A stretch of DNA of 64,000 nt from an uncultured Acidimicrobiales bacterium (lineage in GTDB: Bacteria; Actinomycetota; Acidimicrobiia; Acidimicrobiales; SHLQ01): the NCBI GenBank assembly GCA_964451305.1, contig CAYVHV010000007.1:20616-84615 (forward strand), read 5' to 3'. Position 1 is the first letter of the stretch. Every line of letters begins with the position of its first letter. Below the pieces are notes generated by a model. That model was not told the origin of the DNA, ran no database searches, and saw only the letters and a list, made by a program, of their open reading frames with translations. This document shows positions 10,857 to 45,589 of the stretch, piece by piece. The position numbers and the translations under genes were made by a program.

Positions 10857-11471
10857 ATGGACATTGATTTCTGGGTGGATCCTATTTGACCATGGTGTTG
10901 GGTGACGGCCCGTTGGGTCGTCGAAGAGGTAGCCCCGAAGCGCGATCTGAACATCACGTGGCAGCCGATCAGCCTGCTACTCAAGAACCAGATGGACGAG
11001 AGCGACGAGCCTTATCCTCGCTACCTCAGAACGCACCGAATGCTCCGGGTAATGGAGTCGGTGCGTGCTGCCGAGGGCGATGAGCCGATCGGCGATCTCT
11101 ACTGGGAGTACGGACGGCGAGTTCACCACGACAAGGATCGTGACTTCGATGTTTCCGAAGCACTCGCTGCGGTTGGACTTGATACGTCGCACGCGAGCGC
11201 AGCCGATGACGAGTCATGGGACGCGAAGATCCTCGAACGCCAAGCCGTTGGCATCGAACTCGCGGGCGAGGACATCGGCACACCGATCATTGCATTCGAC
11301 GACAAGAACGGCGATCGAAAGGCGTACTTCGGTCCGGTGATTACTCGAGTACCGCCCGGAGATGAAGCCGTGGAGATGTGGGACGCCCTAATGACGTTGA
11401 TGAACGTCAATGGTTTCTGGGAACTCAAGCGAACCCGAACCGAGCGGCCGGAGTTCGGCGAGCGCCCGTAG
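10857..11471 (+). CDS. DsbA-like mycothiol-type reductase of the Rv2466c family, predicted selenoprotein (UPWC instead of CPWC); TGA at 10887-10889 read as Sec
   Basis: Track ORFs 10614..10889 and 10902..11471 are in the same frame and separated only by one TGA. The joined product is MDIDFWVDPI-U-PWCWVTARWVVEEV...GTPIIAF...FWELKRTRTERPEF. This resembles Rv2466c end to end, as I recall its sequence. Confidence 0.7.
10904..10922 (+). promoter_or_regulatory. candidate SECIS hairpin for the 10887 UGA
   Basis: GACGGCCC-GTT-GGGTCGTC forms an 8-bp stem with one G-U wobble at pair 5. The apical loop is GUU (or CGUUG if the closing pair opens). The stem begins 17 nt after the U of UGA. Confidence 0.55.
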
Positions 11472-11495
11472 TCGGCGACGCCGGCGGGCTCGGAA

Positions 11496-12533
11496 CTACG
11501 CGTCCGAACCGCTCACCGCAAGTTCGACCCGATTCCGACCCAAACGCTTGGCGTCGTAAAGTGCAGCGTCAGAGCGTCGGAACCAGCTTCGGGCTGACTC
11601 TCCATGGCGATACATCGAGACTCCAAACGACATGGTGACCTCGACCTCGCCAGGCTGCGAGATCGCGATTCGGTCCCTGATCGACTCTGTCATGCCTTGG
11701 GCGAGCTCTGGAGATACCCCAACCATGATGAGAGCAAACTCCTCACCACCGATACGAAAGGCGGTGTCATCGCTTCGGAATGCGGCTTCGAGCTCTCGGG
11801 CGACCTCTTGAAGCACGCGGTCGCCGCCATAGTGGCCGCGCTCATCGTTGATCTTCTTGAAATGGTCGATGTCGCCGAGCACTAACGCCGCGGTTGTGTT
11901 GGTCTCGGTCAAGCTCTCTTCGAGCTCGGTGAGCGTGGCCTCGAACAAACGTCGGTTACCCAACCGGGTAAGGCCATCGATACTGGCGGCCTGTCTGTAG
12001 TGAAGGTCAGAGTTCATGAGTTCCACCGACAAGACCCGGATGATGAGGATCAAGCAGAGAAACGTTCCGAAGCGGAAGAACGACTCATAGTCGACCGACT
12101 TCGCTGGGCCCAACGCGGTGAGCGTCGAGGCGGCGATCAAGAACATGAAGCTGTGACGGAGACTGCGCCCGGTGAACAGGACGGGGAAGAGCACGGCGAA
12201 CGACGCGAGGAATGGAAAGAACGGTGAGCTGGCGCCTCCGGTGAAGAAGATCGCAACACCGAACATCGCAACGCTCGTGTACTGGTCGGCGACGTAAATG
12301 AACTCGGCGTCGTGGCCTTTGGAGACAAGTTTTCGGGCCATGGCGGCCTTCAAGGCATCGACGATCGGAGGTAATCCAGCCCACCAGCCGTAGAACGGTA
12401 TCGCTGCGAGCATCAACAGACCCGAAGCGGCGTACAGCGGTACCAATGCCGGATACATACGATCCGACATCTCCACGACGCGACTCGTCGCCCTGTGCCC
12501 AACCTCATTTTCCCGCTCCATATGCTTCACCAT
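11496..12533 (-). CDS. membrane-anchored diguanylate cyclase (GGDEF)
   Basis: The N-terminal half is multi-pass hydrophobic. The C-terminal GGDEF domain carries the active site RIGGEEF and an upstream RxxD I-site (RSDD). Confidence 0.85.
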   Translation of the reverse strand: MVKHMERENEVGHRATSRVVEMSDRMYPALVPLYAASGLLMLAAIPFYGWWAGLPPIVDALKAAMARKLVSKGHDAEFIYVADQYTSVAMFGVAIFFTGGASSPFFPFLASFAVLFPVLFTGRSLRHSFMFLIAASTLTALGPAKSVDYESFFRFGTFLCLILIIRVLSVELMNSDLHYRQAASIDGLTRLGNRRLFEATLTELEESLTETNTTAALVLGDIDHFKKINDERGHYGGDRVLQEVARELEAAFRSDDTAFRIGGEEFALIMVGVSPELAQGMTESIRDRIAISQPGEVEVTMSFGVSMYRHGESARSWFRRSDAALYDAKRLGRNRVELAVSGSDA

Positions 12534-12575
12534 CGGCAGGCGGTACAGAGATCTGAGCGCCGATGTTATGTGCGG

Positions 12576-13820
12576 CTACCTCGCCGCCTCGCGTTCGCTC
12601 CACGTGGTGATAACGCCTGCACGAGACGCGATCACCTTTGGGACTGCACGACTGCAATGGCGGGACCACAAACCAAGCGTGTTGGCCCCGGTTCCAGAAA
12701 TGACGAGCCAGTCACCCTCGGAAAGCTCGGGTAATTCGAGATCTCGTTGAAGGACATCGCCAGCAAAACAGAGCGGACCGACCACGTCATAGGTCTGTGT
12801 CGCCTCACCGGGGTCGTTGGACGTAACGACTCGTCCATCAGGCTTTACGACTGCGAAGCCGTATGTCACGGGGCCCGAGCTGTTGTAGATATCGCGCATG
12901 AAGTAGTCAGCGCCGAGATGCACGAACGCCATTGGCACCGAGCGCGCTTCGATACTCTCGACTCGGGTAGCTGCCCATCCGGCTGCGGAGTGCACCCATT
13001 GACCGAACTCGGTGCGTACGTCGTAGGTGAACAGGTCGCTGTGATCTGACTGCAGCCGTTGGCCGTACTGCGACATCAGGGCATCGCTGTCGGCTTCGGT
13101 ACGCAATCCGCCACCAATGTCGAGCGTGGTTATCCGGCGATCGTCATCACGTTCAGCTCGCGCCGTGTCGACCGCGTCCGCGATGTCGAGGAGGCGACCG
13201 ACCGCTTCGACATGGGCATCACAGGTTGGGACCTGGCTTCCAATGTGCATGTGGAGCGCAGTGACCCCGGCGTCCACGCATGCCGCAATAATGTTGGACC
13301 GATCGCTCACCGGAACGCCAAACTTGCTTCGTTCGGCGCTTACGTCGAACTCGAGTGGTGCGCCGGTGGCGACTTCTGGGTTGATCCGTAGTCCAACCTG
13401 AAACGCTGGGGACTCGGGATAGCGATGTAGTTCTGCGATGGAGTTCGCATTGAGCAGCGCTCCGGGAAGGTTGATCTGGCACCAGGAAATCTCGGCGCGG
13501 GTCTTGACGGGCGAGTCGAAGATCAGGTCCCGCGGAGCGGCCCCTGTCTGCAACGCCAAGCGCACCTCTTCAATCGATGCTGCCTCGAGTCCGAAACCAC
13601 GAGCTGTAAGATGCGCGAGCATCTTTGGGTGCGGCATGGTTTTGATAGCGATCGAATGGCGTACCGAAGACGGAAACGATGCTCGGAGCGACTCGAGCTG
13701 TGCATCGAGCACATCGAGTTCGACACCGATGAGCGCCGTGTCGTCTTCGCCGAGGTCGACAAGAGCGGTAGCGAGCGATGTCGCAGCGAGCCGTGTCAGA
13801 GGCTCACGGCGAGCATTCAT
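12576..13820 (-). CDS. type III PLP-dependent decarboxylase (Orn/DAP/Arg decarboxylase family 2)
   Basis: Alanine-racemase-fold barrel motifs are present (IAIKTMPHPKML with the PLP lysine context, HMHIGSQ, TLDIGGGL), plus a C-terminal beta domain VVGPLCFAGD. Confidence 0.8.
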   Translation of the reverse strand: MNARREPLTRLAATSLATALVDLGEDDTALIGVELDVLDAQLESLRASFPSSVRHSIAIKTMPHPKMLAHLTARGFGLEAASIEEVRLALQTGAAPRDLIFDSPVKTRAEISWCQINLPGALLNANSIAELHRYPESPAFQVGLRINPEVATGAPLEFDVSAERSKFGVPVSDRSNIIAACVDAGVTALHMHIGSQVPTCDAHVEAVGRLLDIADAVDTARAERDDDRRITTLDIGGGLRTEADSDALMSQYGQRLQSDHSDLFTYDVRTEFGQWVHSAAGWAATRVESIEARSVPMAFVHLGADYFMRDIYNSSGPVTYGFAVVKPDGRVVTSNDPGEATQTYDVVGPLCFAGDVLQRDLELPELSEGDWLVISGTGANTLGLWSRHCSRAVPKVIASRAGVITTWSEREAAR

Positions 13821-15265
13821 GCGAGTCGCTCGGCGTATTCGGCGATGATTTCCACGAGTCGTTCGTCGTCATCCATGAACAGGTCACCTCGGCGAAGCAT
13901 CCAGCGAATCGTCGGCGCCCCGATCGCAAAACGAATAAACGAGCGGTCGCCGTAGCGGACGGGTTGGCCAAAGAAGACGCGGCGAGCGCCGTCGCTGAGC
14001 CCGTCGTACTCGGTTGTGATCACGTCACGATAGAGCTGGAGAAGTTCGTCGTGAGAGAGTTCTCGACCGCCGGCGAGCACCTGTGTCGAGATGATCGAGT
14101 CGTTCGTCATGTGTTGGTCCGGCATCAACCGGAAGTTCGGATGTCCATCGATGATGTTCGACAGCTCGGTGTTCCATTTGAGGATCAGCGCATTGGTGAC
14201 ATCGAATGGCCAGCTGGCGTAGCTCTCCATCTCGTCGAGGGCGATCTGCCACCGCAGCCGCAGGCCGCGATTTTCTTCCAAAGGCAGGTGTTGGCGCACG
14301 TTGTCGAGTGCCCAGGGCACATCGTGTGCGCTGAAGATCTGTCCGAACGGAGCGACGGAGTCACCGTTGGTTTCAGCAGCGCGAAGGCGTTCGGTTATCG
14401 TGCGCGGAACGAGCAGTGCTCCACAGAATGGGGGAGTCTGAAAGAACTTGCTTCCTGTAAGCATCACGGTGGCGCCGCGATCGAGCAGGTCGTGCAAGAG
14501 CGCAGGATCTACCCGCATCTGGCAGAGATCAACAACCCACATGACGTGGTCGCCGTAATCGTCGATGACGTCGAGGTCGTCCTTGATACCGGACTTTGAA
14601 CCAAAGACGAGGCTACCGACGATGGCAGCATCAGGGTTGTCCTCGATGAGTTGCACGATCTGGTCGCGTCGGTCGAGAACGTTGCCAGCTTCATCTCGTG
14701 CATCGAGCTCGATAACCGTTGGTTCGGGCATCGTTGGATCTATTGGTGTTCCCTGTCCGATCGCTTGGCCGAATTGGTTTTGTCGACCGAACAATCGCGC
14801 TGCGGCTGCGTCTCGCGATCCGCTGCCGAGCTCTTCGGGGCATGAGATAATCTGGATGATCTCTTTGCCTGGGTGGAGAAGGCGCTGGAACAGTGTCGGG
14901 AAGTAGGCGAGGTCGGTGCCCGATGGGCCGAAGAAGACATCGAGCGGGTCGTTGTGCGCCGAACTCAACAGGTTCTTCAGCCGAAATGTTTGTTCCTCGA
15001 CCAGCGTCGCGTAATTGAGCGTGTCGTAGCGTTCGAGAAACTCGGCTGCGACGTCGCGGGACCGGCCGTTGAGCATGCCCGCGGTGCAGCTTCCACGGTT
15101 GAAGACCTCACGACTGTCGACCGGGTTGAGGTAGTAGCGGTTGAGACCCGTTGTCTCATCGAGTTCAGTGCGTTCATCGCCGCCAGCGGTAAGCGCTTCA
15201 AGCAGTTGCGAATCATCGACGTTGGTCAACGTCTGGATAGTCGATCTCTCGTCTGGGTTGCTCAC
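13817..15265 (-). CDS. hypothetical protein, probably a fold-type I (class V aminotransferase-like) PLP enzyme
   Basis: The 482-aa ORF has coding-like codon usage. The segment VMLTGSKFFQTPPFCGALLVP resembles the S-x-[HS]-K...P-x-G-x-G-x-L PLP-lysine region. Its stop overlaps the decarboxylase start by 4 nt (13817-13820). Confidence 0.5.
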   Translation of the reverse strand: MSNPDERSTIQTLTNVDDSQLLEALTAGGDERTELDETTGLNRYYLNPVDSREVFNRGSCTAGMLNGRSRDVAAEFLERYDTLNYATLVEEQTFRLKNLLSSAHNDPLDVFFGPSGTDLAYFPTLFQRLLHPGKEIIQIISCPEELGSGSRDAAAARLFGRQNQFGQAIGQGTPIDPTMPEPTVIELDARDEAGNVLDRRDQIVQLIEDNPDAAIVGSLVFGSKSGIKDDLDVIDDYGDHVMWVVDLCQMRVDPALLHDLLDRGATVMLTGSKFFQTPPFCGALLVPRTITERLRAAETNGDSVAPFGQIFSAHDVPWALDNVRQHLPLEENRGLRLRWQIALDEMESYASWPFDVTNALILKWNTELSNIIDGHPNFRLMPDQHMTNDSIISTQVLAGGRELSHDELLQLYRDVITTEYDGLSDGARRVFFGQPVRYGDRSFIRFAIGAPTIRWMLRRGDLFMDDDERLVEIIAEYAERLA

Positions 15266-15464
15266 ATGTTCTTTCTGGGGGCAGTGACGCAGTCAACGAC
15301 CCGGTGTCTCGCTGCCCGCAGGACCACGAACTCGCCGTGTTGCGCCAAGACGTAGGTTAGCGCCCCAATCGCTGGTCGAACTTCGCTGAAGCTGTTCGTT
15401 ACCAGTGTCACCCCATCACAAACATGTCGAGCGCAGCTGCCTGCTGCGGAGCTAGCGTCTCTCT

Positions 15465-15917
15465 ATGGAGTACGACGACCTTATGCGCTCAGCGCTCGCC
15501 GAAGCAGAACGTGCAATTCCTCATGGGGATGTGCCCGTTGGGGCCCTCGTCGTGGTCGACGGCGAGGTCATTGCATCGCGCCACAACGAACGAGAGCTCA
15601 CCGGCGACCCAACGGCGCACGCCGAGGTCCTCGCTATGAGAGACGCGTGCGCAAAACTCGGGACGTGGCGGCTCGACAACGCAACGCTCATCAGCACGCT
15701 CGAACCGTGTGCGATGTGCGCAGGTGCGGCGGTTAACGCCAGAGTGCACACGGTCGTCTTTGGAGCACCGGACCTCGAGGCGGGAGCGGTCGGCTCGGTC
15801 TACAACCTCGGCGTTGACTCCCGGCTACGACACACCTTTGAGATAGAGCACAACGTCCTCGGAGACGAATGCACGCAGACGCTCAAGGCGTTCTTCGCCG
15901 GCCTACGGGGGTGGTAA
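15465..15917 (+). CDS. tadA: tRNA adenosine(34) deaminase
   Basis: CDA zinc motifs HAEVLAMRDA and PCAMCAGA; 150 aa. Confidence 0.9.
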   Translation: MEYDDLMRSALAEAERAIPHGDVPVGALVVVDGEVIASRHNERELTGDPTAHAEVLAMRDACAKLGTWRLDNATLISTLEPCAMCAGAAVNARVHTVVFGAPDLEAGAVGSVYNLGVDSRLRHTFEIEHNVLGDECTQTLKAFFAGLRGW

Positions 15918-16014
15918 GTGCAAGTGGCGATCGCTCGTCGTCGAATGAAGCCGGGCGATACAGTCGTGGGCGCACGTCCTCTCAACGCAACGAAGTTAAG
16001 GAGTTGGCCAACCG

Positions 16015-17406
16015 ATGAACGTTCGAATCGAAAGTGACACGATCGGTGACATAGAAGTGCCCGACGAGCGCTACTGGGGAGCACAAACCCAACGCAGTCT
16101 CCAGAACTTCGATATCGGCGGCCAGACCATGCCTATCGAACTCATCCGAGCATTCGCACATCTGAAGAAGGCCGCAGCGCAGGTCAACACCGACCTCACC
16201 GACTTCGACAAAGAGAAAGCCGATGCCATCGCCAAGGTCTGCGATGAGATCTTGGAAGGCACGCACGACGACGAATTTCCGCTCGTGGTGTGGCAGACCG
16301 GTTCGGGCACGCAGAGCAACATGAATGTCAACGAGGTCGTTGCGAACCGCGCTACCGAACTGCTCGGCGGCGACTTCAGGACCGAGAAACTCGTCAAGGC
16401 GAACGACGACGTCAACAAGAGCCAGAGCTCAAACGACACCTTCCCGACGGCGATGCACATCGCCACCTACGAAGCTGTCGTCAACGAGATGTTGCCCAAC
16501 GTTCAGATCCTTCACGACACCCTTGCTGCGAAGTCCGCAGCCTTCTCGAAGATCATCAAGACCGGCCGAACCCATTTGATGGATGCAACGCCCATCACCC
16601 TCGGTCAAGAGTTCAGCGGCTACGCGATGCAGCTGCAGCGCGGCATGGAAGCCGTGAACGACAGCCTCGTTCGTCTTCGTGAGCTCGCGCTCGGCGGGAC
16701 AGCGGTCGGCACCGGCTTGAATACCCCAGATGGCTATGACGAAGCGGTCGCCGCGCGAATTGCCGAGCTGACCGGCCACCCCTTCGTTACCGCCGAGAAC
16801 AAGTTCGAAGCCTTGAGTGCCCACGATGCAATGGTCGAGATGAGCGGCTCGCTCAAGCGACTTGCGGTCAGCCTCATGCACATTGCCAACAATGTCCGCA
16901 TGCTCGCGAGCGGGCCGAGGACATCGATCGGCGAAATCACTATTCCGGCGAACGAACCAGGCAGTTCGATCATGCCCGGAAAGGTCAACCCAACGCAGTG
17001 TGAAGCGCTCAGCATGGTCTGCGTTCAAGTGATCGGCAACGACGCCGCGGTGGCCGTTGCCGGCAGTCAAGGCCACTACCAGTTGAATGTGTTTAAGCCT
17101 GTCATTGCCTACAACGTGCTCCACAGCACTCGCCTGATCGGCGACGCATGTAGGAGCTTCAACGACCACCTTGCGATCGGTATCGAACCCAACCAGGAAC
17201 GGATCGACGAATTGTTGGGCAAGAGCCTCATGCTCGTGACCGCACTCAACGGCACGATTGGGTACTACAAAGCTGCCGAGATCGCACAAGCCGCGCACGC
17301 CAACGGCACGACGCTTCGCGAAGAGGCGCTCGCCCTCGGGTACCTCACCGCCGAGCAGTTCGACGAGATCGTCGTTCCAGCAAAGATGGTCGGCAAGCTC
17401 GACTGA
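16015..17406 (+). CDS. fumC: class II fumarate hydratase
   Basis: Signature [16 protein letters not shown] and full-length similarity ([22 protein letters not shown]). Confidence 0.95.
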
Positions 17407-17446
17407 GACCCAAGCGATGATCAGCAGCGACGTTCGTTCGATCCGG

Positions 17447-18187: not shown

Positions 18188-18290
18188 AAGTGCGACTATA
18201 CGAGGTAAACATAGACCTACCGGACGTGTCTCCTATCACAGAGCACCTTTCGGCAACGCGAGAACGTACGTAGTGGTCCTTGTGGGGTTG

Positions 18291-19756: not shown

Positions 19757-19949
19757 CTAGTGGACGCATCTTTGGCCACGCCAGCGTGATGTGAGAGCGC
19801 CCGCAATTCGTAACACTCACGCAGCGATGCACTGGCTACAGTCAGTGGGGTCGATGGGCGCCATGGGAGCCGTACTCTCATCAGGCTCACGGCGGGCAGT
19901 ATCGGACGACCACGATGCGTTCGAGGTTGGGTAGCGAAAGGTCAGCGCG

Positions 19950-26935: not shown

Positions 26936-27931
26936 ATGACCGACGGGCAACTTTTTGCGCCGACCGCGCAACATCTGGCGATGCCAGAGGAGACACGAGT
27001 AGTCCTTGCACACCAATGGGAACAACTCGCTCAGGCCGGTACCTGGTGGAGCGGAGAACAACGAGTAGATATCGCCAGCGTTGGACGAGCGGCGAGCCGA
27101 GGTCTTCCAGAACCTGATGCATCGTCCATTAGCGACGTCGCTCGCCGAGCAGCCACGGCGGTCGCTACCGCTGCCGGCAGCATCACCAAGGAAACTGTCG
27201 AGGGCTATGTCGCCGACGGTTTGAGCCCGCTTCACTACGTCGAGCTCGTGAGCATCATCGCTCGCACGACAGCGATCGATACGGCGACCGTCGGCCTCGG
27301 GAACGGACTCGAACCATACCTTCCGCCAGTCCCAGGAGCGCCGAGCAACGCAGAGGTGCCGGGCGCCAAACGACGGTCAGCGTGGGTGCCGATGGTTGGA
27401 GCCGCGGGAGCAACGTCGGCTCTGTCGGCGGTCACCGCCGAAGACCGGGCACAAGAACAACTCCATGGAGCGCTGTACCTGAGTTACTTCGAGATGGGGA
27501 ATTTCGGCATCGAGAAGGGGCTCAACCGACCCCAGATGGAGCTCCTGGCAGCCAGAACATCTCTGGTAAACGATTGCTATTTTTGACTGTTTGCACACTC
27601 CGGCATGCTCCGTGCGAGCGCCCATATGTCTCACCAAGACATCAACCTGAAAGCCGTCGGCGATAGCACGCTCGACCCGAACCTACCGGCAGGTCCACAG
27701 CTGCTGGCCTTTGCTGACGCACTCCTCGGAAGCGACGACGATGCGCTCGACAGTGCTCGCTCGGCGCTCACCGATGTCGCTGGCTCGGACTCGACGGCGC
27801 GGGCCGCCCTCGTCGTCGGCAACTTTGAAATGATGAATCGACTGCTCGACGCAACCGGGGTGCCGGTGCCGATCAGCATGGGATCGATTACCTCCGAGCT
27901 CGGACTCCCAGCCTTCACCGGGCGTCACTGA
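26936..27931 (+). CDS. AhpD/carboxymuconolactone-decarboxylase (CMD)-family protein, predicted selenoprotein (CYFU instead of CxxC); TGA at 27584-27586 read as Sec
   Basis: Track ORFs 26924..27586 and 27605..27931 share one frame. Read-through gives ...ELLAARTSLVNDCYF-U-LFAHSGMLRAS..., which matches the AhpD-core motif N-x-C-x-[YF]-C-x-x-x-H with the second Cys replaced by UGA. The ATG at 26936 is preceded by GGGGGGA. Confidence 0.65.
27602..27622 (+). promoter_or_regulatory. candidate SECIS hairpin for the 27584 UGA
   Basis: GGC-(AU bulge)-GCTC-CGTGC-GAGC-GCC gives 7 bp in total with a 2-nt bulge and the apical loop CGUGC. The stem starts 18 nt after the U of UGA. Confidence 0.45.
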
Positions 27932-29960: not shown

Positions 29961-32033
29961 ATGGACGTTTCCCACGCTGAAGACCTCGACGCGCTCGCGA
30001 TCACGACGCTTCGAACCCTCGCCATCGATGCCGTTGAAGAGGCAGGCTCTGGGTATCCGGGCACCGCAATGGCGTTGGCGCCGGTGGTCTACACGATCTA
30101 CTCCGAACATCTTCGCTACGACCCTGACGATCCAACGTGGGAGAACCGCGATCGGTTCGTTCTTTCGGTCGGGCATGCGAGTAACCTGTTGTACGGCATG
30201 TTGCATCTCTCGGGTGTGAAGTCGGTGGATCCATCGACCGGTCCGGTCGGTGAGCCTGCGATGACCGTGGACGACATTCGCGGTTATCGATCGGGTACAA
30301 CACGGGCGACTGGACACCCCGAATACGGCGTGGTCGCCGGCGTTGAAACATCGACCGGCCCGCTTGGGCAAGGACTCGCAAACTCCGTCGGTATGGCGAT
30401 AGCGCAGCGCTTCAAAGCTGCAACCTTCGATGTCGATGGCCAAGGGTTGTTCGATCACGAGGTGATCGCCGTCGGGGGAGACGGCGATGTCATGCAGGGC
30501 ATTGCCTACGAGGCAGCGTCCTATGCGGGCCATCAGCGTCTGTCGAACCTGTGCTGGATCTACGACAACAACAACATCACGATCGAAGGCTCGACCGAGC
30601 TTGCGTTCACCGAAGATGTCGCTGGTCGTTTCACGGCGCTTGGCTGGTCGGTGATCGAAGTCGCAGATGCGAACGACCGAGACGCGATCCGCGCCGCGCT
30701 GGCAGCGTTTCGCGCCGAACAGCACCAACCGACCATGATCATCGTGACCAGCGAGATCGGCTGGGGCTCGCCGAACTTCCAGGGCCAGCAGCGAATGCAC
30801 GGGATTCCACTTGGTCCCGAAGAAACCAAGCTCACCAAAGCTGCATACGGCTGGCCAGAAGACAGCAACTTCTTGGTGCCAGACGAAGTTCTCGAACATG
30901 TCCAGGCAACGTTCTGCGCCCGAGGACGAGCCGCCCGAGATGCATGGAACGAGCAATGGGCGACCTTTGCCGATGCTCACCCAGAGGCGGCTCGGAGCAT
31001 CGAACAGATGCGAAACAACGAACTCCCAGACGGCTGGGATGCCGATATGCCTCGCTGGGATGACCCAACGGAGATGGTGGCGGTACGAGAGGCCTCCTTC
31101 GCATCGATCAACGCGTTCGCCCCGAATATCCCGTGGCTCGTCGGCGGGGCATCGGACACCGCGATGAAGTCGATGACGCTGATGTGGTTTCCTGAGGCCG
31201 GAGGTGCACAACCCGGTAGTCCGGCAGGGCGGAACATGCACTACGGCACTCGCGAACACGGTATGGCCGGAATCGCGAACGGACTCGCGCTGTCGGGTGT
31301 CCGTAACTACGACTCTGCCTACCTCGTGTTTAGCGAATACGCCCGCGGCGCGATTCGTCTCTCGGCGCTCATGGGAGTGCCGGTGATTCACGTCCTCACG
31401 AACGACTCGTTCCAAGTCGGCCCCGACGGGCCTACCCATCAGCCGATCGGGCATCTTGCGACGTATCGGGCAATGCCGAACATCACGATCATTCGCCCAG
31501 CCGACGCGAACGAAACCGCGGTCGCGTGGCGAACGGCCTTGGCTCGGACCGATGGCCCGACGATCCTGTCGATCGCTCACCAGAAGGTTCCCGTTATCGA
31601 TCGCTCGGTCTTCGGGTCGGCCGATGGTGTGGCGCGAGGCGGCTATGTGCTCGCCGATCCACCCGACGGCGCCGAGATCGATGCGATCATCATCGCCACG
31701 GGCGCAGAGGTTCACCTCGCGATCGAGACCCGAGCGCTACTGGCCGAAGACGGCGTAAATGTCCGAATCGTGAACCTCGCATCGTGGGAGATATTCGAAG
31801 CACAATCCAGCGACTACCGCGAATCGGTCTTGCCCGCAGCGATCCGTGCTCGTGTCACTGTGGAGGAAGCAGCGACCATTGGATGGCACCGTTACGCGGG
31901 CGATGCGGGAGAGGTGCTCGGAATCGATACCTTTGGGCTATCGGCTCCTGCGCCAGTGCTCCAGCAGCGATTCGGATTCACTCCAGACGATGTTGCCGCA
32001 GCGACCAAACGCGTTATCGCGAACGCCAGCTGA
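29961..32033 (+). CDS. tkt: transketolase
   Basis: GHPE...TGPLGQGLANSVGMA, GDGDVMQGIAYEA, the GPTHQPI motif (GPDGPTHQPIGHL) and RPADANE; 690 aa. Confidence 0.93.
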   Translation: MDVSHAEDLDALAITTLRTLAIDAVEEAGSGYPGTAMALAPVVYTIYSEHLRYDPDDPTWENRDRFVLSVGHASNLLYGMLHLSGVKSVDPSTGPVGEPAMTVDDIRGYRSGTTRATGHPEYGVVAGVETSTGPLGQGLANSVGMAIAQRFKAATFDVDGQGLFDHEVIAVGGDGDVMQGIAYEAASYAGHQRLSNLCWIYDNNNITIEGSTELAFTEDVAGRFTALGWSVIEVADANDRDAIRAALAAFRAEQHQPTMIIVTSEIGWGSPNFQGQQRMHGIPLGPEETKLTKAAYGWPEDSNFLVPDEVLEHVQATFCARGRAARDAWNEQWATFADAHPEAARSIEQMRNNELPDGWDADMPRWDDPTEMVAVREASFASINAFAPNIPWLVGGASDTAMKSMTLMWFPEAGGAQPGSPAGRNMHYGTREHGMAGIANGLALSGVRNYDSAYLVFSEYARGAIRLSALMGVPVIHVLTNDSFQVGPDGPTHQPIGHLATYRAMPNITIIRPADANETAVAWRTALARTDGPTILSIAHQKVPVIDRSVFGSADGVARGGYVLADPPDGAEIDAIIIATGAEVHLAIETRALLAEDGVNVRIVNLASWEIFEAQSSDYRESVLPAAIRARVTVEEAATIGWHRYAGDAGEVLGIDTFGLSAPAPVLQQRFGFTPDDVAAATKRVIANAS

Positions 32034-36197: not shown

Positions 36198-36260
36198 GGT
36201 TTCGAGCGAACCCCGGCTCGCCTCGCGTACTTCGGAGCGTTCTCTACTATTCTGCGCAGA

Positions 36261-37408: not shown

Positions 37409-39396
37409 TGGTCAACCGCTTGGCCACCGAGTCGAGCCCGTATCTTCAACAACACGCGGAGAACCCGGTCAACTGGTACCCGTGGGGACAAGGGGCGCTC
37501 GACCTCGCGGCTGAACAGGACAAGCCAATCTTGTTATCGGTTGGATACTCGGCGTGCCACTGGTGTCACGTAATGGCTCACGAATCCTTCGAGGACGAGC
37601 GAACCGCAGCGATCATGAACAGATCGTTCGTCAACGTCAAAGTCGATCGAGAAGAACGCCCCGATATCGATGCGTTGTACATGGAAGCCGTACAAGCGTT
37701 GTCTGGCCAGGGCGGATGGCCAATGACGGTGGTCATGACCCCGTCGGGAGAGCCCTTCTTCGCTGGTACCTACTTTCCACCGACGCCACGACACGGCCTT
37801 CCAGCCTTTGGCGACATGCTGGACGCCATTTCGTATGCATGGGAACACGAAAAGGAAGGGCTGGTCGAGCGAGCAACCCAGGTCACCAGCGCGCTGCGAG
37901 AGTGGGCACAGGTCACCCCGGGTCATGAGGCGCTCGATCGGGACCTGGTGTCTACCGCCGTCGAGGAGTTGCTCCGCAGCTTCGACCCGGTGAACGGCGG
38001 CTTCGGCTCCGCACCGAAGTTTCCATCGGCGGTCATCATCGATGTGTTGTTCCGCCATCACATCGCTACTGGCGACACGGCGTCGCTCGACGCTGCGGTA
38101 TCGACGCTCGACCACATGGCCGCTGGCGGGATCTTCGACCACCTCGGCGGTGGTTTTGCGCGGTACTCCACCGACGACAGGTGGTTGGTCCCGCACTTCG
38201 AGAAGATGCTCTATGACAACGCACAGTTGATCACGGCCTATGTGCACGGCTGGCAGCTGACCGGCTCGCGCTCGCATCTCCGCGTCGTCGACGAGACGGT
38301 CACCTACGTTCTCCGTGACCTGCGGCTCGATGGGGGAGGTTTTGCCTCGGCCGAAGACGCCGACACCGAAGGCGAAGAAGGCCGCTTCTATGTTTGGACC
38401 GAAGACGAACTCGCTGACGTTCTCACTCCGGATGAACTGGACGCTGCCAGGGGTTGGTATGGCGTCACCGATGGCGGAAATTTCGGGAATCGCTCGAATG
38501 TGTTGTTCCGACCTGACGTTGCCGTGTGGGAGCGCCCGAAGGCTATAGAGGCAATTCGCGAGAAGCTGTTCAACGCTCGGCTGGGGCGCGAACGGCCCGG
38601 AGTAGACGACAAAGTTCTGACCGAATGGAACGCGTTGATGATTGCAGCGCTCGCCGAGGCGGGAGCGGCCGCAGGGCGAACGGATTGGGTCGACGCTGCG
38701 GTCGAGGCGATGGAGTTTCTTGAAGCCCACCTGCTCGACGATGATCGGTGGTATCGAAGCTGGCAGCAGGCCAGCGGGCGTAAACACCGCTCCTACTCGG
38801 CGGACTATGCAGCGCTCATCGACGCATACACGCGCCTCGGCGAAGCGACCGGTCAGAAACGCTGGCACCTCGCTGCGTTGCGGACGTCAGAACAGATGCT
38901 GGACCTGTTTTGGGACACCGATCACAGCGGATTGTTCACCACTGGTCGAGACGGCGAGGAGCTGCTCGTCCAACGCAAGGAATTCTTCGATAGCCCGGTG
39001 CCCTCGTCGAACGCGAACGCTGCGGTCGTGCTTCAACGTGTCGGCATTATTCATGGGCGAGATGACATCGCCGGACGGGGGCGCGAACTCATGACGCTTC
39101 TGACGAGCGCTTCGTGGGAAAATCCGGCTGCCCACGCTCGGATGCTGGCGGCTGTCGACCTCGCGTTCGGCCCGACGAGCGAGATCGTCGTCGCGGGCGA
39201 TTCGCCGGACCTTCTCGCCACCGTTCGCCAGACGTATCTGCCGAACTCGGTGATCCTTCATGGCGAACGCTTTGAAAGCCCGCTGTGGAACGGTCGAGAG
39301 GACGGTCGGGCATATGTGTGCAAGAACTACACATGCACGCTACCGGCGGCCGATGTCGACGAACTCGGCGTGCAGCTCGCACGCCTCGCAGGGTAA
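37408..39396 (+). CDS. thioredoxin-domain protein (DUF255/YyaL family, thioredoxin fold plus six-hairpin glycosidase-like domain)
   Basis: [18 protein letters not shown]...[22 protein letters not shown]...[14 protein letters not shown] start at 37408. Confidence 0.88.
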
Positions 39397-39434
39397 GTTC
39401 ATGCCCGCAATGTCTCTTCGAGGAGTTCAGCACA

Positions 39435-41765
39435 ATGGATGAGCTCACGGGGCTGACGAAAAGCGAGGTTGCTGACCGCGTCAGCGCTGGCCAGACGAAC
39501 GTGTCCAGTGAGCCAGAAGGTCGCTCGTTAGCTCACATCATCGAGGCGAACGTCCTCACGCCGGTGAACGCGATCATGATCGTTCTTTTCATCCTTGTGG
39601 TGATCTCGGGCAACATCGGCGACGGCTTGTTCGTCGGTGTCGTCTTTTCGAACAGTGTCCTCGGCATTGCCCAAGAGGTGAAGGCCCGGCGCGAGCTCGC
39701 TCGGCTCCAAGTGCTGACCGAACCTGAAGCGATCGTCATTCGAGATGGGAGCCGTGAAACCGTCGACGTTGACGAGATCGTCCTCGATGACCTGATCGTG
39801 CTCAACTCCGGTTCACAACTGCCGGTCGACGGGACGGTGGTTGCGGTGACCGGGTTGCGCCTCGACGAGTCACAACTGACCGGCGAGTCGTTGCCGGTTC
39901 GCAAAGAGCTCGGCGATGACGCGCTCTCGGGCAGCTTCGTTGTTGCTGGCAGCGGCGTCATGCGGGCAACCGCGGTCGGGCTCGATAGCTTTGCCGCTGG
40001 ACTCACCAACGAAGCAAAGACATTCCGGGCCGCAGAGTCCGAGCTCCGCCGAGCGGTCAACGTGATCCTGCGATGGCTGACGGTGATCATCCCGATCAGT
40101 TCCATCCTGCTGCTCGTCGTCTTGCTCGATATCGAGGATCGTTGGCAGGACGCGCTACAAGGCACTGTCGCCGCAGCGGTTGCGATGGTGCCCGACGGTC
40201 TGGTGCTCTTGACGAGCCTCGCCTTCGTCGCAGGGTTGCTCGAACTTACCCGTCGAAACGCATTGGCATCGGAGCTGTCGACCGTCGAAGTGCTCGCCCG
40301 CGTCGACACGCTGTTCCTCGATAAGACCGGCACGATCACGACCGGCGAGATCACCTATGGAGCGACCCATGTGTCGTCGGACTGGTCAGAAGCCGACGTT
40401 CATCGCGTGTTAGCGGCGATGATCGCGAGCGACGACGATCCCAATGCCACTGCCTTGGCCCTCGCCGCCGCGGTCGGAGCGGATCCGGGATGGACGACGC
40501 GGTCGATCGAGCCCTTCTCGAGCGCCCGGAAGTGGTCGGCGATCGAATTCGCGGAACGTGGATGGTTCTATTTCGGGGCGCCTGACGTGCTGTTGTCAGA
40601 GGACGATCCAGCCAAGTCGATCGTGCGTGAGCGAAGCGCTGCAGGGAAGCGGTTGATCGCCCTCACCTCGGCTACGGCCGGGCCGAGCGGAGATGCTGCA
40701 CCCTCGGACCTGAGTACCCTGGCGATCATCGAGCTCGAAGACGAGATTCGACCCGACGCGCTAGACACGCTCCAGTACTTCGCCGACCAGGACGTGGCCA
40801 TCAAGGTGATCTCTGGCGATAACCCCGACACGGTGGCTGCGATTGCCGAGCGTGCAGGAGTGACGTTGCTCGGGCCATCGACCGATGCTCGGACCTTGAG
40901 CGACACGCGCAGCCTGATCGGAGAGTCGCTCGAAGCGGGAACCGTCTTTGGGCGGGTAGCACCACGACAAAAACAAGAGATGGTCAAGGCCATGCAAGAG
41001 CGTGGTCACGTGGTGGCGATGACCGGGGACGGAGTGAACGACGTGCTTGCCCTCAAGGACGCCGACCTTGGTATCGCAATGGGATCGGGAAGCGCTGCAA
41101 GTCGAACCGCTGCTGACCTCGTGCTCACCGACAACGCGTTCTCCACCTTGCCCGTCGTGGTGAGCGAAGGCCGAAAGGTCATCAACAACGTCGAGCGAGT
41201 GGCGAATCTGTTCGTGACAAAGGCGGTGTACGCCGTGCTGTTGACCGTGCTCGTCGGTGTTGCGGGTACGCCGTTTCCGTTCCTCCCACGCCAACTCACC
41301 CTGATCGGAACGTTCAGCATCGGGCTCCCCGGATTCTTCCTCGCGCTCGCGCCTGAGGTCGAACGAGTTCGAGCAGGATTCCTCTACCGAGTTCTGCAAT
41401 TCTCGATACCGGCCGGAATTACTGCGGGTGCGGCATCGTTTTCGGCCTACCAGTTCGCGCAGCGTGTTATGAACGTCGACCTTGGACAGGAACGCACCTT
41501 GGCCACCGTGACGCTTCTCGGGATTGGACTCGTAATTCTCCTCGTCGCCAGCCGACCGCTTCGAGTCTGGAAACTCGGACTCGTCGCCGCAATGGCCGGC
41601 GGGTATGTAGTGGTGTTTCTGGTCGCACCACTTCGAGAGTTCTTCCAGCTCGAATCGTTGAGCGCCGAACTATGGTCGATCGCAGCGATCGCCAGTACGA
41701 CGGCGAGCATCGTCATCGCGATGATCGCGTTTGTCTGCAACAAAATTGGCTCGCGTCGTAGCTAG
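39435..41765 (+). CDS. cation-translocating P-type ATPase (HAD-IC, P2/CtpE-like)
   Basis: Phosphorylation motif DKTGTITTGE, hinge TGDGVNDVLALKDADLGIAMG, and TM4 motif VPDGL. I chose the ATG at 39435 because the track start at 39285 overlaps the previous gene. Confidence 0.88.
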   Translation: MDELTGLTKSEVADRVSAGQTNVSSEPEGRSLAHIIEANVLTPVNAIMIVLFILVVISGNIGDGLFVGVVFSNSVLGIAQEVKARRELARLQVLTEPEAIVIRDGSRETVDVDEIVLDDLIVLNSGSQLPVDGTVVAVTGLRLDESQLTGESLPVRKELGDDALSGSFVVAGSGVMRATAVGLDSFAAGLTNEAKTFRAAESELRRAVNVILRWLTVIIPISSILLLVVLLDIEDRWQDALQGTVAAAVAMVPDGLVLLTSLAFVAGLLELTRRNALASELSTVEVLARVDTLFLDKTGTITTGEITYGATHVSSDWSEADVHRVLAAMIASDDDPNATALALAAAVGADPGWTTRSIEPFSSARKWSAIEFAERGWFYFGAPDVLLSEDDPAKSIVRERSAAGKRLIALTSATAGPSGDAAPSDLSTLAIIELEDEIRPDALDTLQYFADQDVAIKVISGDNPDTVAAIAERAGVTLLGPSTDARTLSDTRSLIGESLEAGTVFGRVAPRQKQEMVKAMQERGHVVAMTGDGVNDVLALKDADLGIAMGSGSAASRTAADLVLTDNAFSTLPVVVSEGRKVINNVERVANLFVTKAVYAVLLTVLVGVAGTPFPFLPRQLTLIGTFSIGLPGFFLALAPEVERVRAGFLYRVLQFSIPAGITAGAASFSAYQFAQRVMNVDLGQERTLATVTLLGIGLVILLVASRPLRVWKLGLVAAMAGGYVVVFLVAPLREFFQLESLSAELWSIAAIASTTASIVIAMIAFVCNKIGSRRS

Positions 41766-41796
41766 TTCACCGCCGCGGTTCAGATACTGCCTCGGC

Positions 41797-43308
41797 TCAC
41801 GTTCCACAGAACGTCTGGTAGCGGTTCGTGAACCCTGCTGGCGCCGGCTCGGCGTAGAGCTCCATATCGTCGCGTTCTGTGAAGGGCGACGTGGTCACGT
41901 CCAACAGGAGATGGAACGGTTCGAGGTTTCCTGACCTCGCGGCCGCAAGCGCTTCTTCGACGAGGTGATTGCGAGGAATATAGATCGGATTTACCAGGTC
42001 CATCGCCGCAGCGACCTCGTCACGGTCAGCGGTGCCGAGAACATCGAGCCATTGTTGATACCAGACATCCCAGGCCTGATCTGAGGCGAGCGAGTAGTCG
42101 GTCGCGTCTTGGCTCCGGAGCACCGAAGAGAGCGCGCGGAACGCCACCGTGTGATCCGCTCCGACCCGAGCGAGCATCTCGACGAAGCCGTCGGTGAGCG
42201 CCGCTACTTCAGCGTCGTTTGATCGCTCCGCCAGCCCGATCTTGGCCGCCATGTGTGCAACCCAATGACCTCTGAACTGCTCGGGAAACGCTTCGAGAAC
42301 CTCCGTTGCTTGCGCAACGGCCTCTTCGGGTTGCTCAGAGAACAATGGGAGAAGTGTTTCGGCGAGTCGGGCAAGATTCCACTGTCCAAGCTTGGCTTGG
42401 TTGCCAAACGCGTACCGGCCCTGACGGTCGATCGAACTAAACACCGTCGATGGATCGTACGTCTCGAGGAAGGCACATGGCCCGTAGTCGATCGTCTCTC
42501 CGGAGATGAGGACGTTGTCGGTGTTCATCACACCGTGAATGAACCCGTTGACCATCCATCGGGCGATGAGGAACGCCTGAGCGTTCGTGACCGCCTTCAG
42601 CAGCTCAAGTGCGGGAACTTCTGCATCACGTAGCTCGGGGTAGTGACGTTCGATCGAGTAGTCGACGAGCTCGCGTACAAGATCAGGGTCCTTTCGTGCG
42701 GCGTACTCGAAGGTCCCGACGCGAAGATGGCTCGCCGCAACGCGGCCGAGGACCGCTCCCGGCTCCATCTGTTCTCGGCGGACGCTCGCACCGGTCGTGA
42801 CGACTCCGAGCGCCCGAGACGTCGGTACGTCGAGAGCGTGCATCGCTTCGGCCATCAGGTACTCGCGGAGCATCGCTGACAACGTGGCGAAGCCATCGCC
42901 TCCTCGTGAATACGGTGTGCGTCCCGAACCCTTGAGGTGGAGGTCGGCCAACGTCCCGTCGCTCGATGTCAGTTCGCCGAGGAGGAGTGCCCGACCGTCG
43001 CCGAGCAGAGGGGAGTAGCCACCGAACTGATGACCGGCGTAGGCCATAGCGATCGGCTTGGCCCCGTCGGGCACGTTGGTGCCGGCGAGGAAGGCTGTGC
43101 CATCCTCGCCGTGCAACCATCCAACATCGACACCGAGGTCTTCAGCGAGCTCGTCGTTGATCACGACGGCCTCTGGAGACGGAGCATCATCTGCTTTCCA
43201 CTCGGTACCGAGCGCAGGGAAACGCGTGGCGAAGAGCGAGGAAAGCTCCGGTGCGCCGTCAGGATTCGCCGAAGCGTTCTCCTCGGCATCGATGGTGTTG
43301 GAACTCAT
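41797..43308 (-). CDS. selO: protein adenylyltransferase SelO (YdiU/UPF0061)
   Basis: YAGHQFGGYSPLLGDGRALLLGE, HLKGSGRTPYSRGGDG and GFIHGVMNTDNVLISGETIDYGP. The C-terminus ...YQTFCGT carries a Cys, and the TGA after it is a genuine stop. Confidence 0.92.
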   Translation of the reverse strand: MSSNTIDAEENASANPDGAPELSSLFATRFPALGTEWKADDAPSPEAVVINDELAEDLGVDVGWLHGEDGTAFLAGTNVPDGAKPIAMAYAGHQFGGYSPLLGDGRALLLGELTSSDGTLADLHLKGSGRTPYSRGGDGFATLSAMLREYLMAEAMHALDVPTSRALGVVTTGASVRREQMEPGAVLGRVAASHLRVGTFEYAARKDPDLVRELVDYSIERHYPELRDAEVPALELLKAVTNAQAFLIARWMVNGFIHGVMNTDNVLISGETIDYGPCAFLETYDPSTVFSSIDRQGRYAFGNQAKLGQWNLARLAETLLPLFSEQPEEAVAQATEVLEAFPEQFRGHWVAHMAAKIGLAERSNDAEVAALTDGFVEMLARVGADHTVAFRALSSVLRSQDATDYSLASDQAWDVWYQQWLDVLGTADRDEVAAAMDLVNPIYIPRNHLVEEALAAARSGNLEPFHLLLDVTTSPFTERDDMELYAEPAPAGFTNRYQTFCGT

Positions 43309-43310
43309 TG

Positions 43311-43853
43311 TTATGCGTCTGCTTTCTCGGCTGGAGCTGTCGTGGAATCGTTCGTTGTGTCACCGGTGATCTCATCGATGATCTCGATGACCTTGGTCGG
43401 ATCAGCCTGGAAACCCTGGCCGATGATCTCACGATCTGGCCCGATAAGGACGGTCCACGGGGTACCGCCGGTGCGGTAGTCGGCCATGGTCTTTGGCGGG
43501 TGGCCGCTGTCGTGCCCGAGTGCAATGTCCTCGAGACCGTGCTCCTTAACCGACTTCAGCGCAGCTTCGGCGGTGTTGGTTTCGTGTCCCTCAAAGACGG
43601 TCTGGATCGCAATGAACTCGACCAGATCTGCCTTGCCGGCCTTCTCGTAGTGCTCCTTGACCGCTGCCAATGTCGGGAAACCGTGGGAGTGACAGCCCGG
43701 GCACCACGACTGGAAGGCGTAGAGGTAGATGATCGGTGCATCGATGTCGGCGATGCGCCGCGGCAGGTCATTTCCGTCGAGCCATTCGTCGACGCGAAGC
43801 TCTGGTGCGGGTCCGCCCGTAAGTCCGTAATTCTCTGCCATGTCGTTCTCCAT
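43311..43853 (-). CDS. TlpA/AhpC-TSA-like thioredoxin-fold redoxin (CPGC)
   Basis: YLYAFQSWCPGCHSHGFP...GGTPWTVLIGPD. It ends 2 nt before the selO start. Confidence 0.8.
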   Translation of the reverse strand: MENDMAENYGLTGGPAPELRVDEWLDGNDLPRRIADIDAPIIYLYAFQSWCPGCHSHGFPTLAAVKEHYEKAGKADLVEFIAIQTVFEGHETNTAEAALKSVKEHGLEDIALGHDSGHPPKTMADYRTGGTPWTVLIGPDREIIGQGFQADPTKVIEIIDEITGDTTNDSTTAPAEKADA

Positions 43854-43910
43854 TCCGTGCCAGCGGTACCCGATTTGGTTTTGCCGCTATGTGATAGACA
43901 AGCGAGATAC

Positions 43911-44567
43911 ATGATTGTTACACCGAAGTCGGAAAAAAATTTGCCGAGCGCGGATTCCGGGATATTGGACGCAATTCGAGCGGGGGATACCGAGGCTTTT
44001 GAGGCGCTCGTGACCGAACTGACCCCAGGGCTTCGAGGACTTGCTCGAACGTATGTGAGTAACGCTCTTGCAGAAGAGGTGGTTCAAGAAACTTGGGCGG
44101 CGGTGGTTCGCTCACTCGATTCGTTCGAAGGTCGGTCCTCGTTGAGGACGTGGATCTATCGAATCTTGCTAAACAAGGTCCGTACGCTCGCCGGCCGAGA
44201 GGCTCGAATCGTGCCATTCGCTTCGCTGGGCCTCGGCGAAGATGGTGTGTCACCGTCGGTTGAGCCGGAGCGTTTCGGCGACCGGCTCCTCCAGGACGGT
44301 GATTGGGTGGTGCCGCCAACCGAGTGGAGTGATGCCCCCGCCGAAGAGCTCGAGAATGACGAGGTGCTCGACCTTGTTCGCCATGCCATCGATGAGCTGC
44401 CTGAATCCCAGCGCGAGGTCATGCAGCTGCGAGATGTCGAGCAATGGCGCGCCGATGATGTTTGCGAAGCGCTCGGTATTTCGTCGGTGAACCAACGGGT
44501 CTTGTTGCACCGGGGTCGAGCCGCTGTTCGATCAAAGTTGGAGGACTACTATGCCGTCGCCGCATGA
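43911..44567 (+). CDS. ECF-type RNA polymerase sigma-70 factor
   Basis: Region 2 reads EEVVQETWAAVVRSLDSFEGRSSLRTWIYRILLNK and region 4 reads LPESQREVMQLRDVEQWRADDVCEALGISSVNQRVLLHRGR. I chose the ATG at 43911 because the track ORF start at 43251 lies antisense to the redoxin gene. Confidence 0.88.
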   Translation: MIVTPKSEKNLPSADSGILDAIRAGDTEAFEALVTELTPGLRGLARTYVSNALAEEVVQETWAAVVRSLDSFEGRSSLRTWIYRILLNKVRTLAGREARIVPFASLGLGEDGVSPSVEPERFGDRLLQDGDWVVPPTEWSDAPAEELENDEVLDLVRHAIDELPESQREVMQLRDVEQWRADDVCEALGISSVNQRVLLHRGRAAVRSKLEDYYAVAA

Positions 44568-44859
44568 GGAACGCTCCCGTGACGCCGACTTCGTAACGAA
44601 CCCGTTGGTGCTTCGCTGCGTCGAAGTTGTTGAGCTCATCACCTTCTACCTCGATGATGCATTGGACGTCAACGATCGTCGGGCCGTCGACACCCACCTC
44701 CGTGGCTGCGAAAACTGCACCGTGTTCGTCACCCAGATCCGCCAGACGATTCAGCTAGCGGCCGCGGTCGGACAGCGCGAAGCCGTCGAGCCGCCAGCGA
44801 ATTTCGCCGAGTTGTCGGCGCTCGTGGCGCAACGAAACGACCCGTCGACGCAGACATAA
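44551..44859 (+). CDS. soluble zinc-binding (ZAS, zf-HC2) anti-sigma factor, RsrA/RshA-like
   Basis: 102 aa with no TM segment. The ligand pattern is C23-x25-H49-x3-C53-x2-C56 (...THLRGCENC...). It overlaps the end of the sigma gene by 17 nt. Confidence 0.8.
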   Translation: MPSPHEERSRDADFVTNPLVLRCVEVVELITFYLDDALDVNDRRAVDTHLRGCENCTVFVTQIRQTIQLAAAVGQREAVEPPANFAELSALVAQRNDPSTQT

Positions 44860-44887
44860 CCCGGTCCATGACCGAATCGGTCGTGCC

Positions 44888-44913
44888 GGAATTTCTCTCT
44901 CGGACCTATGGTT
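44888..44913 (+). promoter_or_regulatory. candidate SigR/SigH-type ECF promoter (GGAAT-N18-GTT)
   Basis: GGAAT at 44888-44892, exactly 18 nt of spacer, then GTT at 44911-44913. The element lies 44 nt upstream of the ATG at 44957. Confidence 0.55.
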
Positions 44914-44956
44914 ACTGAGGTAGCAGCGAGGACTTTCTTCGCGAATGGGAGTGCAA

Positions 44957-45589
44957 ATGAGACCGGTAAAGATCACTGTCTATTCGGACTTTATTTGACC
45001 ATGGTGTTGGGTCGGGACCGTGCGTCTCGACAGGTTGAAGGAAAAGTACGGCGATCGCGTCGACATCGAGTGGAAAGCATTCTTGCTTCGCACTGGACCT
45101 CGTGATTGGCAGCGCGCAGACTTCTTGCACTACACCCGTTCGTGGATGCGTCCAAAGGAAGCCGAACCCGAGCTGGACTTCACCATCTGGGCGACCGATG
45201 ACCCCCAGCCGCATTCCAGCATCGAGGCTCAGGTCGCCTTCAAAGTGCTTGAAGAACTGGCGCCGGAAAATGCGAAGGCGTATCACGACCGGATCATGAA
45301 GGCGTACTTCGTGGAGAACCGCGACATCAGCAACGCAGACATCCTCACCGGCCTCGCCGTCGACGTAGGCGTCGATGCAGCGGCGTTCCAAGCAGCGATT
45401 GAAACTCGTAGCGAAGTGATGGTCGAGCGGGTATTCGAGGAATACAACAGCGCAATTTCACAGAACGTCACGGGCATCCCAACCGTGGTGTTCGAAGACC
45501 AGTTTCCAGTCGTCGGTGCTCAGCCGCTCGAAACCTATGAAGACATCGTCGAGCAGATCGAGAAGCAGCTCGAGTCGATGGCCGATTGA
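44957..45589 (+). CDS. DsbA-family (FrnE-like) thiol:disulfide oxidoreductase, predicted selenoprotein (UPWC); TGA at 44996-44998 read as Sec
   Basis: The ATG at 44957 (GGGAG 7 nt upstream) gives MRPVKITVYSDFI-U-PWCWVGTVRLDRLKEKYGDR... in frame with track ORF 45020..45589. The N-terminal beta-strand plus [CU]PWC is the canonical DsbA/FrnE start, and GIPTVVF is the cis-Pro loop. Confidence 0.7.
45011..45031 (+). promoter_or_regulatory. candidate SECIS hairpin for the 44996 UGA
   Basis: GTCGGGAC-CGTGC-GTCTCGAC forms an 8-bp stem with a G-U wobble at pair 5 and the apical loop CGUGC. The stem starts 15 nt after the U of UGA. Confidence 0.55.

Follow-up and report, generated by a model that had tools for sequence, protein, structure and literature searches.

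The window analysed here, a 64,000-nucleotide stretch of DNA from an uncultured Acidimicrobiales bacterium (contig CAYVHV010000007.1 of assembly GCA_964451305.1, positions 20,616 to 84,615), very probably carries three genuine selenoprotein genes, in each of which a UGA codon would encode selenocysteine (Sec, U) in place of one cysteine of a CxxC redox motif, with a predicted bacterial selenocysteine insertion sequence (SECIS) hairpin 15–36 nt downstream. This reading is accepted because conservation of the UGA, constraint at synonymous sites and covariation in the stem hold across species. The genes, their UGA codons and their hairpins are as follows.

10857..11471, plus strand: gene 1, Rv2466c-like (DsbA-fold) thiol reductase, 204 amino acids, predicted active site U11-P-W-C14
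10887..10889, plus strand: putative Sec-UGA of gene 1, a TGA at the codon aligned with the first Cys of CPWC
10903..10923, plus strand: candidate SECIS hairpin of gene 1, 9 bp, loop GUU (or pentaloop CGUUG)
26936..27931, plus strand: gene 2, AhpD-related (seleno)protein, 331 amino acids, predicted motif C-Y-F-U217
27584..27586, plus strand: putative Sec-UGA of gene 2, a TGA at the codon aligned with the second Cys of CxxC
27602..27622, plus strand: candidate SECIS hairpin of gene 2, 4–5 contiguous bp plus a 3-bp lower stem, loop CGUGC
44957..45589, plus strand: gene 3, FrnE-like DsbA, 210 amino acids, predicted active site U14-P-W-C17
44996..44998, plus strand: putative Sec-UGA of gene 3, a TGA at the codon aligned with the first Cys of CPWC
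45011..45031, plus strand: candidate SECIS hairpin of gene 3, 8 bp, loop CGUGC

The in-frame UGAs were located by a six-frame scan for TGA inside a redox motif with an open frame on both sides. An earlier sequence-only reading of the window had placed UGA at a CxxC redox cysteine at three sites, and the TGAs are indeed present at 10887, 27584 and 44996, each aligned to an active-site Cys and flanked on either side by sequence homologous to the family. The read-through product of gene 1 begins MDIDFWVDPI-U-PWCW and matches Pfam PF22234 (Rv2466c-like) at 145 bits (gathering cutoff 27) and the Rv2466c structures PDB 4zil/4nxi with E = 1e-41 over 199 residues, the U falling on the first Cys of CPWC. 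The gene 2 product, which reads LVNDCYF-U-LFAH around the UGA, scores 227.8 bits (curated cutoff 175) against NCBIfam NF041238 (AhpD_rel_CFYUT alkylhydroperoxidase-related (seleno)protein), in one stretch from residue 22 to 321 that crosses the UGA; aligned with AhpD (PDB 6k40), the U is the second Cys of CxxC (CxxCxxxH). The product of gene 3 begins MRPVKITVYSDFI-U-PWCW and matches Pfam DSBA (PF01323) at 93.4 bits and FrnE (PDB 5cp1) with E = 7e-17, again with U at the first Cys of CPWC. In a profile search no NCBIfam model matched gene 1, and no dedicated one matched gene 3. In all three genes the UGA is preceded by an ATG with a G-run resembling a Shine-Dalgarno sequence (GGGG precedes the ATG of gene 1, and GGGAG lies 6 nt before that of gene 3). 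A further UPWC motif, at 2331, is a chance match, since the hydrolase gene at that place runs in another frame.

Comparison among species is most extensive for gene 1, for which a scan with one genome per GTDB species gave 31 orthologous loci, all from Acidimicrobiales and 41–94% identical. The TGA is kept at the same codon in 25 of these, including the cultured Salinilacustrithrix flava EGI L10123, and the other six have TGC (CPFC or CPWA); the residues before the UGA are conserved as DI(D/E)FWxDPx. Sequencing error was rejected as a source of the UGAs, since the same TGAs turn up in 25 species and across dozens of separate assemblies. The stem of hairpin 1 is paired in 99.5% of cells across the 26 Sec forms, comprising 23 distinct orthologs, and pair 21–33, formed by the third codon position of a Thr and the third codon position of a Val, changes from G-C to A-U, U-A and U-G in one species each; the covariation score was reached by none of 500 shuffles. 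(Scaffolds L001–L007, 99.8–99.9% identical to the window, are uninformative for covariation.) Among residues at least 80% conserved, codon entropy is 0.34 in the hairpin versus 1.16 elsewhere (p = 3e-4). Folding energies of the Sec forms range from −10.5 to −16.1 kcal/mol (mean −13.9), whereas five of the six Cys forms are without the hairpin and reach only −1.7 to −7.8 kcal/mol.

A metagenome scan gave nine relatives of gene 2, eight of which cover the UGA site, and all eight (34–68% identity) have TGA there in a CxxU motif. About 200 residues before the UGA are conserved among the relatives, one of which (L046) carries exactly CFYUT. The consensus 5-bp hairpin is found in 9/9 sequences with the core GCUC-CGUGC-GAGC retained, the register of the lower stem differing between relatives; the cores of the nine sequences compared hold no compensatory change. 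The hairpin codons CTC CGT GCG AGC have an entropy of 0 versus 1.15 for other conserved residues (p = 8e-4), and this zero synonymous variation rescues a hairpin that is weak in isolation.

For gene 3, all 38 protein matches with at least 50% identity are 175–192 amino acids long and start just past the UGA, and full-length Cys forms are seen only at 42% identity or below. In the DNA of five distinct N-truncated orthologs (56–77% identity) the TGA is present in every case, within UPWC in all but one, and these orthologs also carry the same hairpin; codon entropy is 0.19 in the hairpin versus 0.98 elsewhere (p = 2e-4). One ortholog (L048:9977–9988) has UEWC, with Glu for Pro, and its hairpin is intact and 1 bp shorter.

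We note that a PNPOx_N-family gene adjoins the FrnE-like gene in three lineages. In the window it lies at 45587–46248 and begins 2 nt past the gene 3 stop, in a second lineage (L056:3576–4232) the two genes overlap by 4 nt, and in a third (L048:9210–9887) it is upstream of the FrnE-like gene. This arrangement suggests that the putative FrnE-like selenoprotein and the PNPOx_N-family gene form a functional pair.

Public annotation treats the UGAs as stops. The automatic calls start gene 1 at the GTG at 10902, past the UGA, and divide gene 2 into products of 216 and 108 amino acids. The gene 1 ortholog of S. flava (NZ_CP133888.1; L023:3001–3606) is deposited as a protein of 192 amino acids starting MTARWVV (WP_432430058.1/MCO8128895.1, "Rv2466c family protein"), which begins past the UGA and is without the UPWC active site. 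An in-frame GTG or ATG does occur shortly downstream of each UGA, which, like the annotation, fits a reading of the UGAs as real stops, with the genes either pseudogenes or encoding truncated or split proteins started just past the UGA. We nevertheless consider this very improbable. The truncated DsbA-fold proteins would be without the entire CxxC active site; the codons before the UGA (10 in gene 1 and 216 in gene 2) are open and conserved in relatives of 34–94% identity, with good Shine-Dalgarno and ATG signals upstream of the UGA; and TGA is the only stop seen, with no case of TAA or TAG, and it invariably occupies the catalytic Cys codon. Real stops would also leave the conserved hairpins unexplained.

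The hairpins have a recognizable layout as single sequences. Hairpin 1 has 8 bp, extended to 9 by a terminal U-G (offsets 16/17–24 pairing with 28–35/36), and an energy of −13.9 kcal/mol (z = −3.1); hairpin 2 has the core (U)GCUC-CGUGC-GAGC(G) at 27606–27620 with three further bp under an AU bulge, at −8.3 kcal/mol; and hairpin 3 has 8 bp (offsets 15–22 pairing with 28–35), at −12.0 kcal/mol (z = −1.9). The sequence-only reading had described apical loops beginning 20–24 nt past the UGA, with the sequences GUU/CGUUG, CGUGC and CGUGC and a G at loop position 1 or 2, and two 8-bp stems with a G-U wobble at the fifth pair. The measured distances are 22, 24 and 20 nt at sites 1, 2 and 3, refolding returns the same loops, and sites 1 and 3 have both the 8-bp stem and the wobble. 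Its broader claim of a general bacterial SECIS (bSECIS) layout also holds, as hairpins 1, 2 and 3 (stems of 9, 4–5 (+3) and 8 bp) agree with all the published constraints given in the excerpted text of a 2026 review, namely a loop of 3–9 nt, a stem of 4–16 bp, G in loop positions 1–2, a spacing of 16–37 nt and a minimum free energy (MFE) of −7.5 kcal/mol or lower (PMC13188914).

How often such structures arise by chance was estimated from all 128,000 window positions on both strands, as an ungapped stem with G in loop positions 1–2 at the same distance. The background rates are 0.8% for at least 9 bp, 2.0% for at least 8 bp and 25% for at least 5 bp, and the joint chance probability of the three hairpins is about 4e-5. 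Hairpins 1 and 3 are unlikely by chance, and hairpin 2 alone is not unusual; the expectation that random positions would not yield equally good hairpins thus stands for sites 1 and 3 and fails for site 2.

The three hairpins had also been proposed to share a common architecture. A loop-anchored alignment of the three families has the common apex C-C-G-U-(G/U)-(G/C)-G and an 8-pair helix in 90% of cells, with pair types differing by family. The C-CGUKS-G apex with a stem of at least 4 bp occurs six times in 128 kb, three of these being the Sec sites, a count that is partly circular in that the motif was defined after the fact. A covariance model of the kind suggested in the sequence-only reading, with all three families as input, gives the sites 35, 31 and 28 bits and the rest of the window at most 14 bits; a model from families 2 and 3 is specific only together with the UGA and the open reading frame (ORF), since adding a TGA 11–15 nt before the match leaves hairpin 1 and one intergenic match. 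What stands of the proposal is the generic bSECIS layout and the shared apex C-CGU(G/U)(G/C)-G, and what does not is a model that readily finds one family from the others, the leave-one-family-out model barely finding hairpin 1. A common architecture does exist, in the form of a generic, low-information bSECIS layout that is diagnostic only with UGA and ORF context.

The sequence-only reading had gone on to suggest a Sec-rich thiol-redox proteome, and no further gene came to light in support of it. No fourth selenoprotein gene was found in the window, where screening each TGA for surrounding coding potential yielded nothing but antisense or out-of-frame artefacts. A scan of 374 kb for a redox motif with a hairpin of at least 6 bp brought back the known genes and otherwise just a few matches of non-coding appearance, with a filter that would miss site 2, and about 310 kb of related Acidimicrobiales DNA from other species held no further candidate and no new match with UGA at the right distance; these filters would miss weak hairpins and non-CxxC motifs. 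At 30217–30260, a TGA is followed after 23 nt by an 8-bp hairpin with the loop GGUCC, and this is a chance match, out of frame in the transketolase gene (29961–32033), which illustrates that the generic SECIS pattern alone yields false positives.

Several results weigh against three genuine selenoprotein genes. Taken as whole 60-nt segments, the three sites are no more stable than shuffled sequence (z = −1.2, −0.65 and −0.24 for sites 1, 2 and 3), and thermodynamics alone is therefore insufficient for the case. Hairpin 2 is weak singly, being matched by a quarter of random positions (z = −0.8), and the minimum-energy fold of the site-2 segment is another structure. The model from families 2 and 3 gives hairpin 1 only 11.2 bits, a score that ranks 14th in the window with E about 1. 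A Cys-form ortholog of gene 1 (L029:3031–3071; CPFC, from an Ilumatobacteraceae metagenome-assembled genome) keeps the hairpin at −14.0 kcal/mol, and it scores 21.8 bits with the three-family covariance model; a hairpin alone is therefore no proof of recoding, and this one may be a relic of recent Sec-to-Cys replacement. A covariance-model scan of the window at gathering score matched no Rfam SECIS family, nor any other Rfam family; since the SECIS elements modelled in Rfam are eukaryotic ones and a few of other bacterial types, the missing match is no argument against function. Finally, no selA, selB, selC or selD was located in the window, the reachable scaffold or 58 further loci.

Some of these results would fit hairpins that have no RNA function and arise merely from conserved protein sequence in G+C-rich DNA. 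The hairpins sit within the conserved peptides VTARWVV, MLRAS and VGTVRLD, stems of 5 bp or more are common in DNA of 61% G+C, and both the 60-nt folds, no better than shuffles, and the folding of the Cys-form L029 agree with such an origin. Against it, the synonymous positions of the hairpins are near-invariant while equally conserved residues elsewhere vary freely, the Thr third-position changes in gene 1 are matched three times by the paired Val third position, and the hairpin is missing in five of six Cys forms. We regard an origin as by-products as extremely unlikely, and the reading as functional SECIS hairpins is preferred.

The missing selenocysteine machinery would favour a different proposal, in which the UGAs are read through or reassigned to Cys, Trp or Gly without selenocysteine. 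A tRNA scan of the window and 48 loci gave no tRNA-Sec, the Pfam labels of called genes in the scaffold and neighbouring loci include no SelA, SelB or SelD, and a tblastn search of 548 kb with E. coli SelD and SelA gave no matches, a weak test with approximate query sequences. A C follows all three UGAs but only four of 20 genuine TGA stops, and UGA followed by C is a leaky termination context in E. coli; in two of the three genes, though, the CPxC motif continues with a Pro codon, which leaves no choice but C at this position. Reassignment throughout the genome had been judged unlikely from the start, and the stop codons bear this out: TGA terminates 20 of the 56 called genes (TAG 24, TAA 12), among them fumC (17404–17406) and selO (41797–41799), both of which had been said to end at TGA, and across the called genes, about 19,600 codons in all, in-frame UGA is confined to the three redox Cys positions. 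The downstream hairpins, moreover, agree with the SECIS consensus, and gene 2 belongs to a curated selenoprotein family, so that decoding without selenocysteine has in our view scarcely any likelihood.

Two observations on the stops may be added. TAG as the commonest stop is unusual at 61% G+C, in a small sample of 56 genes. The minus-strand selO end (41797–41799) was considered as a CxxU site, reading TFCGT-TGA with nine open codons to a second TGA; it has no SECIS-like hairpin and is a true stop.

In favour of three genuine selenoprotein genes there is also the occurrence of the trait nearby: complete Sec machinery is reported for all 84 genomes of Actinomarina, from the sister order Actinomarinales of the same class (bioRxiv 10.64898/2026.04.03.716425). 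By analogy, the Sec trait is plausible in the window organism.

Decoding at the three sites would follow the bacterial scheme, of which the archetype is E. coli fdhF, where the G-U of the SECIS loop is the SelB contact. A complex of SelB, GTP and Sec-tRNA(Sec) would bind the apical loop, in which loop positions 2–3 are G-U within C-CGU(G/U)(G/C)-G, and binding while the UGA is in the ribosomal A site would deliver selenocysteine and avoid termination. In the predicted products of genes 1 and 3 a selenol would replace the N-terminal Cys of CPWC, and in that of gene 2 it would be at the second Cys position of CxxC; all three would presumably be faster in thiol-disulfide exchange or peroxide-linked redox chemistry. 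SelB binding, Sec insertion, the presence of selABCD and these biochemical roles are what we infer from sequence.

Two of the three families have long been catalogued. The Sargasso Sea survey of Zhang, Fomenko and Gladyshev (2005) described AhpD-like (CxxU), hypothetical protein 1 (CxxU) and DsbA-like (UxxC, COG2761) selenoproteins, whose SECIS elements have a G in a small apical loop (PMC1088965), and NF041238 is equated with hypothetical protein 1 in the excerpted text of the 2026 review (PMC13188914). Gene 2 is alike to NF041238 over its full length, with CxxU, and has no essential difference from it, its host being a member of the Acidimicrobiales. Gene 3 resembles the DsbA-like selenoprotein form 1 (PF01323, COG2761/FrnE) in the DSBA/FrnE fold, the first-position Sec (UxxC) and the G in the SECIS apical loop, but it has no dedicated NCBIfam match and the database entries of its close relatives are all truncated. 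By sequence, genes 2 and 3 are further predicted members of catalogued selenoprotein families. The window hairpins are likewise close to the bSECIS consensus (bSECISearch model; archetype E. coli fdhF) in the small G-U loop, the 20–24 nt spacing and the MFE, although the window loops are narrower, with the common motif C-CGU(G/U)(G/C)-G.

Gene 1 is different in this respect. It shares the DsbA-like fold and xPWC with Rv2466c, the mycothiol-dependent reductase of Mycobacterium tuberculosis (PF22234; PDB 4nxi, 4zil, 5xur), but the first Cys of its CPWC is a UGA, followed by the candidate SECIS hairpin. Among the best 120 protein clusters matching gene 1, 86 are N-truncated just past the UGA and none is named a selenoprotein, and in the 31 species genomes (25 with TGA) as in these clusters the predicted Sec form is the majority among the close Acidimicrobiales relatives of gene 1. 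A Sec form of Rv2466c is not in the selenoprotein table as excerpted from the 2026 review (PMC13188914), and literature searches returned no paper linking Rv2466c with selenocysteine. The Sec form of the Rv2466c subfamily appears to have gone unrecognised so far, still falling within the DsbA-fold UxxC class.

The window has 61% G+C and matches several metagenome scaffolds, each about 85 kb long, at 99.8–99.95% identity (e.g. ENA ERZ23487673 scaffold_228), and its genes have their orthologs in genomes of Acidimicrobiales (Actinomycetota, Acidimicrobiia). Many independent metagenome assemblies contain the same population, at this level of identity, and one of the window's proteins is found in 52 collection blocks, on contigs of up to 0.2–1 Mb. 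The minus strand from 47280 to 58000 carries an assimilatory nitrate/nitrite cluster with a molybdopterin oxidoreductase and nirB- and nirD-like genes, together with an NMT1-type ABC transporter and HEM4 and TP_methylase (siroheme) genes; no in-frame TGA is present in the molybdoenzyme of this cluster.

Taken jointly, the three genes could belong to a sizeable, mis-annotated thiol-redox selenoproteome of the Acidimicrobiales, in which Sec-Rv2466c is the majority and probably the ancestral form and C-CGU(G/U)(G/C)-G is a lineage-typical apex, a proposal that we put forward tentatively and with some doubt. As a mechanism the decoding is already familiar, and lists of selenoproteins have included two of the three families since 2005. 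What would change is the reading of hundreds of Acidimicrobiales database entries, from two DsbA-fold families, that are truncated without their active site and that reading UGA as Sec would restore. The finding points to selenium-dependent thiol-redox chemistry in abundant environmental Actinomycetota, which would include a Sec version of a family known above all for Cys-based prodrug activation in M. tuberculosis; if this is true, Sec-Rv2466c would be an uncatalogued selenoprotein family, with a cultured host, Salinilacustrithrix flava, at hand.

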